From the NCBI RefSeq assembly GCF_003334405.1, contig NZ_QOWM01000002.1: DNA of 64,000 nt, one strand, 5' to 3'. The stretch's first letter is position 1. Every line of letters starts with the position of its first letter. The notes beneath the pieces are model-generated. The model was not told where the DNA came from, ran no database searches, and was given only the letters and a program-made list of their open reading frames with translations. Shown here piece after piece: positions 8,863 through 10,702 of the stretch. Source of the DNA: Escherichia coli (GTDB taxonomy: Bacteria; Pseudomonadota; Gammaproteobacteria; Enterobacterales; Enterobacteriaceae). The position numbers and the translations under genes are program-made.

Positions 8863-9587
8863 GTAAAAGCCGCTTAACGGTGTTTAGTTTCGTTCGCCGT
8901 TTTCTTTTGCGGTTAATGGTTGTCCTCGCCGTTTTCTGGGGCGGGGGCATCGCGTTGTTTAGCGTTGCGCCTGTTCCCTTCTCAGCGGTAATGGTCGAGC
9001 GACAGGTCAGCGCCTGGCTGCATGGCAATTTTCGTTACGTGGCACATTCTGACTGGGTCAGTATGGATCAAATCTCGCCGTGGATGGGACTGGCGGTGAT
9101 TGCCGCAGAAGATCAGAAATTTCCTGAGCACTGGGGCTTTGATGTCGCTTCCATTGAGAAAGCCCTGGCGCACAACGAGCGCAATGAAAACCGTATTCGC
9201 GGTGCTTCAACGATTTCTCAACAGACAGCCAAAAATCTCTTTTTATGGGATGGGCGTAGCTGGGTTCGAAAAGGGCTGGAAGCCGGATTAACGCTGGGGA
9301 TAGAAACGGTCTGGAGCAAAAAGCGTATCCTGACGGTTTACCTGAATATCGCCGAATTTGGCGACGGTGTGTTTGGCGTCGAAGCTGCGGCACAACGTTA
9401 TTTCCACAAACCCGCGAGCAAACTTACCCGGTCGGAAGCTGCATTACTGGCAGCTGTATTACCTAATCCACTTCGTTTCAAAGTCTCCTCGCCATCGGGC
9501 TACGTGCGTAGCCGTCAGGCGTGGATTTTACGGCAGATGTATCAGTTAGGCGGTGAGCCGTTTATGCAACAACACCAGCTGGATTAA
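8859..9587 (+). CDS. mtgA: monofunctional biosynthetic peptidoglycan transglycosylase
   Basis: 242 aa ORF; start ATG overlaps elbB stop (ATGA); GT51 motifs ([19 protein letters not shown]). Confidence 0.95.
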
Positions 9588-10216
9588 GCTTCGCGCGAAG
9601 TGAGGGCCAGCGTTTTGCTCTCACGAGGTTGCAGATCTTTCTGCAGGGCAATAGCCAGCGCCGGTTGGGCGATAAATCGTTTCCATAACCGCTCTTGCTT
9701 ACGCAGACAACACCACTTCGACCAGGTCGCCAGTGGAATCAATGTGCTTTCACCAATGTTGTCGCAGACGACCGGGATAACCTCTGACTCACTGATGCGG
9801 TGACAGAGGATATTCTGCGGCTTCAGCGACATCGTCACGATACGGTTATCCTGCAAATAACGCTTCAGCTGTTTCAGTAGCTGGCGCAGTTGTGCAATGT
9901 CTTCTTCGTAACGGCATTGTTCAGCAAATTCGGTCAGCGTAATGGAAGGCTTGCCGTCAAAATCTGCAATCACATCGTAGACATAACCGGTTCCGCAATC
10001 CGTCTCAACGGTACCGTGATAGCGCGGTATTCCACTCCAGTCTTTTAACCGGCGACCAAGATGCGCGTAGTACTTTAACTCACGGCGGATCTCTTTATCG
10101 CCACCATCGCCACGATGGTAGACAATCTTGATACAGCGTTGGGCATCTTCCGGATGCGCATAACATTTCCGATGTCTTCCGGTGCCCAGGGGACTTTGTT
10201 CAGATAAGCGAATCAT
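9584..10216 (-). CDS. yrbL: PhoP-regulon protein YrbL
   Basis: Track ORF 9584..10273; start at [11 protein letters not shown] gives 210 aa; PhoP box lies upstream. Confidence 0.9.
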
Positions 10217-10265
10217 GCCATCTCCTGGAAATATTTTCTGACGATCTCCAGTATGGTCGATTAAC

Positions 10266-10283
10266 TTAAACAAAACCTAAACA
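10266..10283 (-). promoter_or_regulatory. PhoP box (direct repeat TGTTTA-N5-TGTTTA) in yrbL promoter
   Basis: Reverse complement reads TGTTTAGGTTTTGTTTAA about 50 bp upstream of the yrbL ATG. Confidence 0.7.
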
Positions 10284-10429
10284 ATGCCTCTTAAGGTTTT
10301 CTTAAGGTTCTTCTGAAAGTGAAAAGCGCACAAAATGTACAAATGACGTTGATTGAGAACGATTTCAGTACGTGATTTTCTTATTGTCGGGGGGAGTTTG
10401 AAGGGAGTTGTATGTCAAAGTGATGAAGA

Positions 10430-10702
10430 TTAATCTTCATCAAAACCAGAATTAAAGAGGGCGATAACGGCGGCCAGTGCTTCCTCTTCCTGTGGACCGG
10501 TCGCTTCAACTTCAATCTGCCGTCCTTTGGCAGAATCCAACATCAGCAGCGCAATAACGCTGTTGGCTTCAGCCTCGGTGCCTTCGTCATTACGTAAGAG
10601 CACTTCAGCGTCAAAACCCTGCATTAATTCAAACAGCTTCATTGCAGGCCGGGCATGCATGCCCAGCTTGTTTGTGATTTCAACAGTTTGCTTGACGGTC
10701 AT
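10430..10702 (-). CDS. npr: nitrogen-related phosphocarrier protein NPr
   Basis: 90 aa HPr-like [23 protein letters not shown]...; overlaps rapZ stop. Confidence 0.95.

Follow-up and report, generated by a model that had tools for sequence, protein, structure and literature searches.

The window, the whole stretch of 64,000 nucleotides (64 kb) that we analyzed, is E. coli chromosome and covers the elbB-mtgA / yrbL-npr-rapZ-ptsN-hpf region. According to the RefSeq annotation of an identical strain, elbB and mtgA lie on the plus strand, and yrbL, npr, rapZ, ptsN, and hpf lie on the minus strand. The segment of interest is the intergenic region between npr and yrbL, which carries a PhoP box. The 1.25 kb around this box show 100% identity to many E. 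coli chromosomes and are present in 5,426/5,426 complete genomes.

RefSeq gives the product of yrbL the name "PhoP regulatory network protein YrbL." The protein matches the Pfam model PF10707 (YrbL-PhoP_reg) with E = 2.3e-67, residues 2-185 aligning with positions 1-184 of the 185 in the model. This full-length profile match places YrbL in PF10707, a member of the protein-kinase-like clan, making YrbL kinase-like. Both the RefSeq name and the Pfam match bear out the earlier note on this DNA, which had named yrbL as the gene downstream of the repeat. The features of the region are as follows.

9584..10216, minus strand: yrbL coding sequence, 210 aa, with its ATG at 10216 (RefSeq annotation)
10217..10429: yrbL-npr intergenic region
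10222..10226, minus strand: Shine-Dalgarno sequence AGGAG, 5 nt ahead of the yrbL ATG; kept in the 12-sequence alignment A2 described below
10247 (about), minus strand: predicted yrbL transcription start, transferred from the homologous Salmonella start (S1 mapping); 2 nt past the -10 hexamer
10250..10255, minus strand: -10 hexamer CATACT, 11 nt (AGTTAATCGAC) 3' of the PhoP box
10267..10283, minus strand (the yrbL sense strand): PhoP box TGTTTA-GGTTT-TGTTTA, 17 nt, overlapping the -35 region
10283..10278, minus strand: distal half-site of the PhoP box
10277..10273, minus strand: spacer of the PhoP box
10272..10267, minus strand: proximal half-site of the PhoP box
10279..10274, minus strand: poor -35 hexamer TAGGTT inside the PhoP box, with an 18-nt spacer and 4 mismatches
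10290..10306, minus strand: PmrA/BasR box CTTAAG-AAAAC-CTTAAG, 6 nt 5' of the PhoP box; a published repressor site
10343..10323, minus strand: conserved block TTGTACATTT-N-GTGCKCTTT (TGTAC-N5-GTGCKCTTT), 19-21 bp
10702..10430, minus strand: npr (RefSeq annotation)

On the plus strand, positions 10266..10283 read TTAAACAAAACCTAAACA, the reverse complement of which contains TGTTTA-GGTTT-TGTTTA. The earlier note had placed this direct repeat at 10266-10283, about 50 bp upstream of the yrbL start. Re-reading the sequence, we found the repeat at 10283..10267 on the minus strand; the original coordinates were thus correct to one base, position 10266 adding a single flanking A, and the distance measured from the box to the ATG at 10216 was 50 nt. 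The description of the site as a near-perfect PhoP box held for the type of repeat but understated the match, as the two hexamers form a direct repeat with zero mismatches to the consensus (T/G)GTTTA-N5-(T/G)GTTTA. A PhoP box qualifies as direct when it reads on the sense strand of its gene, and the yrbL box does so.

The exact consensus has this site as its sole match in the 64 kb on both strands, compared with an expectation of 0.00 and with 0/100 dinucleotide shuffles. To score the site independently of the consensus string, we used a PhoP weight matrix (PWM) derived from 37 footprinted boxes in 22 other Salmonella promoters (PMC3335776, Table 1), with yrbL excluded. The scan, which the earlier note had suggested as a check, ranked the yrbL box first of 127,964 positions with a score of 22.4 bits, compared with 16.4 for the runner-up, 19.25 for the best of 200 dinucleotide-shuffled windows, and 18.8 bits for the highest-scoring training site. 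With up to two mismatches allowed, the consensus was found at 17 sites in the window, against 12.9 expected. Such relaxed sites therefore occur at background frequency, and only the exact yrbL site stands out. That background frequency is the one observation in favor of reading the repeat as a chance, low-complexity T-rich stretch in AT-rich intergenic DNA with no regulatory role. The zero expectation for the exact consensus and a PWM score above all 200 shuffles argue against it, as do the retention of the box and its fixed -10 spacing across genera and the published binding (EMSA) and PhoP dependence (S1) (PMC3335776; PMC5775216). A chance origin is, in our judgment, extremely improbable, and we treat the repeat as a PhoP box in what follows.

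The position of the box relative to the promoter elements corresponds to architecture I: a single box in gene orientation lies over the -35 region, 11 nt from the -10 hexamer. The yrbL promoter lacks a usable -35 hexamer of its own, which marks it as activator-dependent. A generic sigma-70 consensus scan of 10100..10500 detected no promoter, as is expected where a promoter depends on an activator. From homology with Salmonella, the E. coli yrbL transcript is predicted to start ~31 nt before the ATG, near 10247. The published start lies 2 nt from the -10 hexamer, an unusually short distance, and the assignment of either the start or the hexamer could be off by a few bases.

We also considered that the repeat might be coding. 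The yrbL open reading frame runs up to a TTG at 10273 inside the box, and initiation there would yield a protein of 229 aa with the N terminus MFKLIDHTGDRQ... In opposition to this extended YrbL, the RefSeq start is the ATG at 10216, with a strong AGGAG 5 nt before it, and the match to the Pfam model covers the 210-aa protein from residue 2 onward. Moreover, Citrobacter and Salmonella have 1-nt indels in the box-to-ATG segment that would break the frame, and the mapped Salmonella start is 3' of the box (PMC3335776). The longer protein is hardly credible in the face of these data, and we retain the repeat as a noncoding promoter element.

One clinical E. coli strain, Ecol_AZ161 (NZ_CP019012.1), carries the IS66-family element ISEc23 inside the -10 hexamer, directly after CATAC at the equivalent of ~10250. 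The insertion splits yrbL from its PhoP and PmrA boxes.

Shigella falls inside the E. coli species. The PhoP binding, the dependence on PhoP and low Mg2+, the mapped start, and the PmrA repression that enter our reading are all taken from published papers. In Salmonella, yrbL was assigned to architecture I, in which a single PhoP box in direct orientation lies roughly a helical turn 5' of the -10 hexamer and class II activation is predicted; the values given are a box-to-(-10) distance of 11, a CATACT -10 hexamer, a TAGGTT -35 hexamer, a spacer of 18, and a leader of 32 nt (PMC3335776). S1 mapping revealed a single start, which the wild type used at 10 uM Mg2+ and which a phoP mutant lacked (PMC3335776). 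The Salmonella yrbL box is part of the footprint data set of the same study (PMC3335776), and PhoP was found to occupy the promoter (PMC4196223). A Shigella flexneri yrbL promoter fragment displayed a concentration-dependent gel shift with PhoP-P (PMC5775216). Deletion of phoPQ in Shigella left yrbL at 0.02 of the wild-type level, a 50-fold drop, and the PhoP dependence was measured by microarray, qRT-PCR, and lacZ fusion (PMC5775216). In E. coli, induction of PhoP elicits a response from a yrbL reporter that saturates at a low point and has a low dynamic range, and in single cells yrbL output and PhoP level are poorly correlated (PMC13215669).

The closest characterized system is the Salmonella enterica yrbL promoter (Zwir et al. 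2012, PMC3335776), which belongs to an orthologous gene in the same npr-yrbL-mtgA context. It shares with the window the single direct box, the 11-nt gap, CATACT, TAGGTT with its 18-nt spacer, and the adjoining PmrA box. The published Salmonella box, TCGTTTAGGTTTTGTTTAA, has CGTTTA as its distal half-site, and the Salmonella strains that we fetched for comparison carry ATTTA in the proximal half, whereas both halves read TGTTTA in the window; the box-to-ATG distance is 51 nt in Salmonella compared with 50 nt in the window. The Shigella flexneri 2a yrbL box (Lin et al. 2018, PMC5775216) is the identical 19-mer tTGTTTAggtttTGTTTAa, with no differences at the level of the site. Among the other architecture I promoters, mgtA, phoP, and slyB likewise have one direct (T/G)GTTTA-N5-(T/G)GTTTA box over the -35 region, situated 12 nt from the -10 hexamer, whereas the yrbL box is at 11 nt. 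Both yrbL and pmrD additionally bear a PmrA repressor box, unlike mgtA, phoP, and slyB. Class II activation is predicted for the architecture I group and has been demonstrated for mgtA (PMC3335776).

Together, the sequence, orientation, and position of the box and the published Salmonella and Shigella data support the earlier proposal that yrbL is a PhoPQ target. We are nearly certain that the repeat is the functional PhoP activation site of the yrbL promoter, with binding and dependence provided by the papers cited above. The yrbL PhoP box is an already known, experimentally characterized feature, and its presence is an ordinary finding. This strain has an intact, canonical yrbL promoter, and the value of the result lies mostly in annotation; it also illustrates that a genuine regulator site can be picked up by simply reading for the consensus.

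The following sequence of events would account for activation. At low external Mg2+ (and also upon exposure to antimicrobial peptides, acid pH, or osmotic upshift), PhoQ would phosphorylate PhoP, and a PhoP-P dimer would bind head-to-tail on the two TGTTTA hexamers, which are one helical turn apart. The PhoP box would stand in for a usable -35 hexamer, and the bound PhoP would recruit sigma-70 RNA polymerase directly, presumably in the class II manner.

The second element of the promoter is the PmrA/BasR box at 10290..10306, CTTAAG-AAAAC-CTTAAG, which fits the definition of CTTAAG and xTTAA(T/G) half-sites 5 bp apart. The published PmrA consensus is CTTAAG plus xTTAAT with a 5-bp separation (PMC3973317), and the repeat at 10290..10306 agrees with it in its half-sites and 5-nt spacing. 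A search for CTTAAK-N5-CTTAAK returned 10290..10306 as the only match in the window, with 0.02 expected. Because the CTTAAG hexamer is palindromic, the orientation of the PmrA box cannot be read from its core. The distance from the center of the PmrA box to the center of the PhoP box is 23 bp, which agrees with the ~24 bp described for Salmonella (PMC2681069).

Passages in PMC3335776 that cite Zwir 2005 describe PmrA as a repressor that binds to the yrbL promoter of E. coli, and passages in PMC2681069 and PMC4196223 that cite the same source likewise describe PmrA regulation of yrbL. The PmrA boxes of pbgP/arn and pmrC/eptA activate, whereas that of yrbL is reported to repress. The genes yrbL and pmrD have been described as a PhoP/PmrA "bi-fan" (PMC2681069). 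yrbL is the first PhoP target to be transcribed, yet the lowest expressed, and this low level was ascribed to PmrA repression (PMC4196223). In iron-adapted E. coli B populations, yrbL goes down whenever basR, eptA, and arn go up (PMC13405929), a direction of change that is consistent with repression by PmrA. Phosphorylated PmrA/BasR on the CTTAAG-N5-CTTAAG box would lower yrbL output, probably by interfering with activation when bound beside PhoP. With such repression next to PhoP activation, yrbL would integrate the Mg2+ signal with the Fe3+/PmrD signal.

Another member of the OmpR/PhoB family might be the main user of the repeat, or PhoP might act indirectly by displacing PmrA or H-NS. Such readings could draw on the PmrA box and the TGTAC-N5-GTGC block as two further conserved elements beside the repeat, and on the poor correlation between yrbL output and PhoP level in single cells (PMC13215669). 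They are difficult to reconcile with the absence of a usable -35 hexamer without an activator and with the abolition of expression upon phoPQ deletion (PMC5775216). A different response regulator is also unlikely because the hexamers are of the PhoP type, not CTTAAG (PmrA) or TACA (RstA). We consider this family of explanations very unlikely, if somewhat less remote than a chance origin, and favor direct activation by PhoP.

To follow the PhoP box between species, we collected yrbL loci from species-representative genomes (Escherichia spp., E. albertii, four Citrobacter, and S. arizonae) and added contigs with more distant YrbL proteins from S. enterica, Siccibacter, Pluralibacter, an Erwinia sp., Cedecea, Superficieibacter, an Enterobacter hormaechei copy, and metagenomic relatives. 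Alignment A2 comprises 12 sequences, and conservation is expressed as majority identity per intergenic segment. The entire intergenic region has an identity of 0.72, with 0.55 from the npr stop codon to the upstream block and 0.61-0.69 in the segments beside the boxes. The PhoP box reaches 0.89, the PmrA box 0.95, and the 20-nt upstream block 0.94, and the -10 hexamer is invariant in 12/12 sequences (1.00). The PhoP box is thus conserved in the orthologous promoters. In a sliding 17-nt test on A2, 13% of the intergenic windows were as conserved as the PhoP box or more so, largely because of the adjoining PmrA box and the upstream block.

The best PWM match within 200 nt 5' of yrbL is followed by 11 nt and then CATACT in 13/16 lineages, which include Escherichia, Citrobacter, Salmonella, Siccibacter, Superficieibacter, and an Erwinia sp. 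In Cedecea, the box is weak (7.2 bits) and TAGACT comes after it, and Pluralibacter has only a degenerate PhoP box. The preservation of the box and its spacing to CATACT across lineages indicates that the promoter architecture predates the genus Escherichia.

A divergent yrbL copy with 60% identity, encoding 192 aa, is found in Enterobacter hormaechei (GCA_030868155.1; positions 548-1479 of our locus L022) outside the npr-mtgA context, with a tRNA-like sequence (ARAGORN anticodon tta) and the remnant of a transposase as its neighbors. This yrbL copy is preceded by a PhoP-like TGTTTA-ATGTC-CATTTA with an 11-nt gap to CATAAT, plus the upstream TGTAC-N5-GTGC block. The regulatory module appears to have moved together with the gene.

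Within E. coli, strains differ by up to 7% in the yrbL intergenic region. An alignment of the window with four divergent strains showed no change in either GTTTA core, in the 11-nt gap, or in CATACT. We then counted box alleles by 30-nt exact-word searches over the 5,426 complete E. coli genomes. The window allele, TGTTTAGGTTTTGTTTA, was present in 3,343 genomes, TGTTTAGATTTCGTTTA (variant part GATTTCGTTTA) in 1,195, and TGTTTAGGTTTCGTTTA (variant part GGTTTCGTTTA) in 848. The three alleles together account for 5,386/5,426 genomes (99.3%), and all of them retain both GTTTA cores, the polymorphic positions being 10272 (and 10276) of the window. The proximal half-site reads CGTTTA in ~38% of the complete E. 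coli genomes, a T/C split of ~62:38. Half-sites of the form (C/T/G)GTTTA were accepted within the canonical PhoP subclass by Zwir et al. (PMC3335776). The earlier note had left out this CGTTTA variant, as well as the strand of the box and the neighboring PmrA/BasR box. The ~62:38 half-site polymorphism and the fixed spacing of the upstream block are possibly useful for work on the evolution of the PhoP network.

The only lead with novelty at this locus is the upstream block at 10343..10323. It is invariant but for one position in the 12 sequences of A2 and exceeds the PhoP box in conservation. Nearly invariant in Escherichia, Citrobacter, and Salmonella, it is still recognizable in Siccibacter, Pluralibacter, Superficieibacter, and the island copy of Enterobacter. 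The distance from the first T of TGTAC to the first base of the PhoP box is 58 bp in 10/16 lineages and 57 bp in S. enterica, the P0046 locus, and Pluralibacter; in Siccibacter, the core is retained with a CTACA variant, ~57 bp from the PhoP box.

Three cases indicate that the block belongs with yrbL and not with npr. In Superficieibacter and one metagenomic relative, the block is present and the PmrA box is absent; in the E. hormaechei copy, the block is present though npr is not adjacent; and in Siccibacter and Pluralibacter, it sits after a strong npr terminator. A third regulator of yrbL, as yet undescribed, may conceivably bind to this block, a candidate assignment drawn from sequence comparison that we put forward only tentatively. 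If it were correct, the small yrbL promoter would be a three-input integrator.

Several established elements were compared with the block, visually or with software, and rejected. As a sigma-54 promoter, it has acceptable spacing, but the -24 GG reads TG. As a MarA/SoxS/Rob marbox, it contains GCAC and CAAA with the spacing off by 1, and it agrees with the RstA box TACATnTnGTTACA over the first 10 nt but lacks the second TACA. The half-site periodicities do not match those of EvgA, CpxR, or OmpR sites. Read as a plus-strand -10 hexamer, TACAAT varies in its final base, and a potential 21-codon open reading frame is interrupted by an in-frame TAG in Citrobacter. An RNA structure or npr terminator did not fit either, with z = -0.87 and a position 3' of the true terminator in Siccibacter and Pluralibacter. 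An Rfam search gave nothing credible for the block, no copies beyond chance expectation were found elsewhere in the 64-kb window, and a literature search for links between yrbL and RstA, OmpR, sigma54, ChIP-exo, or SELEX data returned nothing relevant.

At the npr end of the intergenic region, a perfect 9-bp inverted repeat, GATGAAGAT/ATCTTCATC, spans 10424-10443 on the minus strand around the npr stop codon (TAA, 10432..10430). No T-run follows this repeat, and in E. coli the npr-yrbL interval yielded no canonical terminator. At the same place, Siccibacter and Pluralibacter carry a T9 terminator with a strong GC hairpin.

Finally, our searches recovered YrbL-family proteins in other settings. 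Two gut metagenome contigs (L024 and L025) encode distant members with ~50% identity just 3' of dnaE, and no PhoP box was detected upstream of these genes. Their neighbors are a second YrbL paralogue, a gene for a Kdo/WaaP-family lipopolysaccharide kinase, or a gene for a glycosyltransferase, a hint that the kinase-like YrbL family may have a role related to the envelope or LPS. In addition, a 420-bp contig labeled Tannerella forsythia ATCC 43037 (NZ_JUET01000135.1) codes for 129 residues with 99% identity to E. coli YrbL; this contig is almost certainly E. coli contamination in the Tannerella forsythia assembly.
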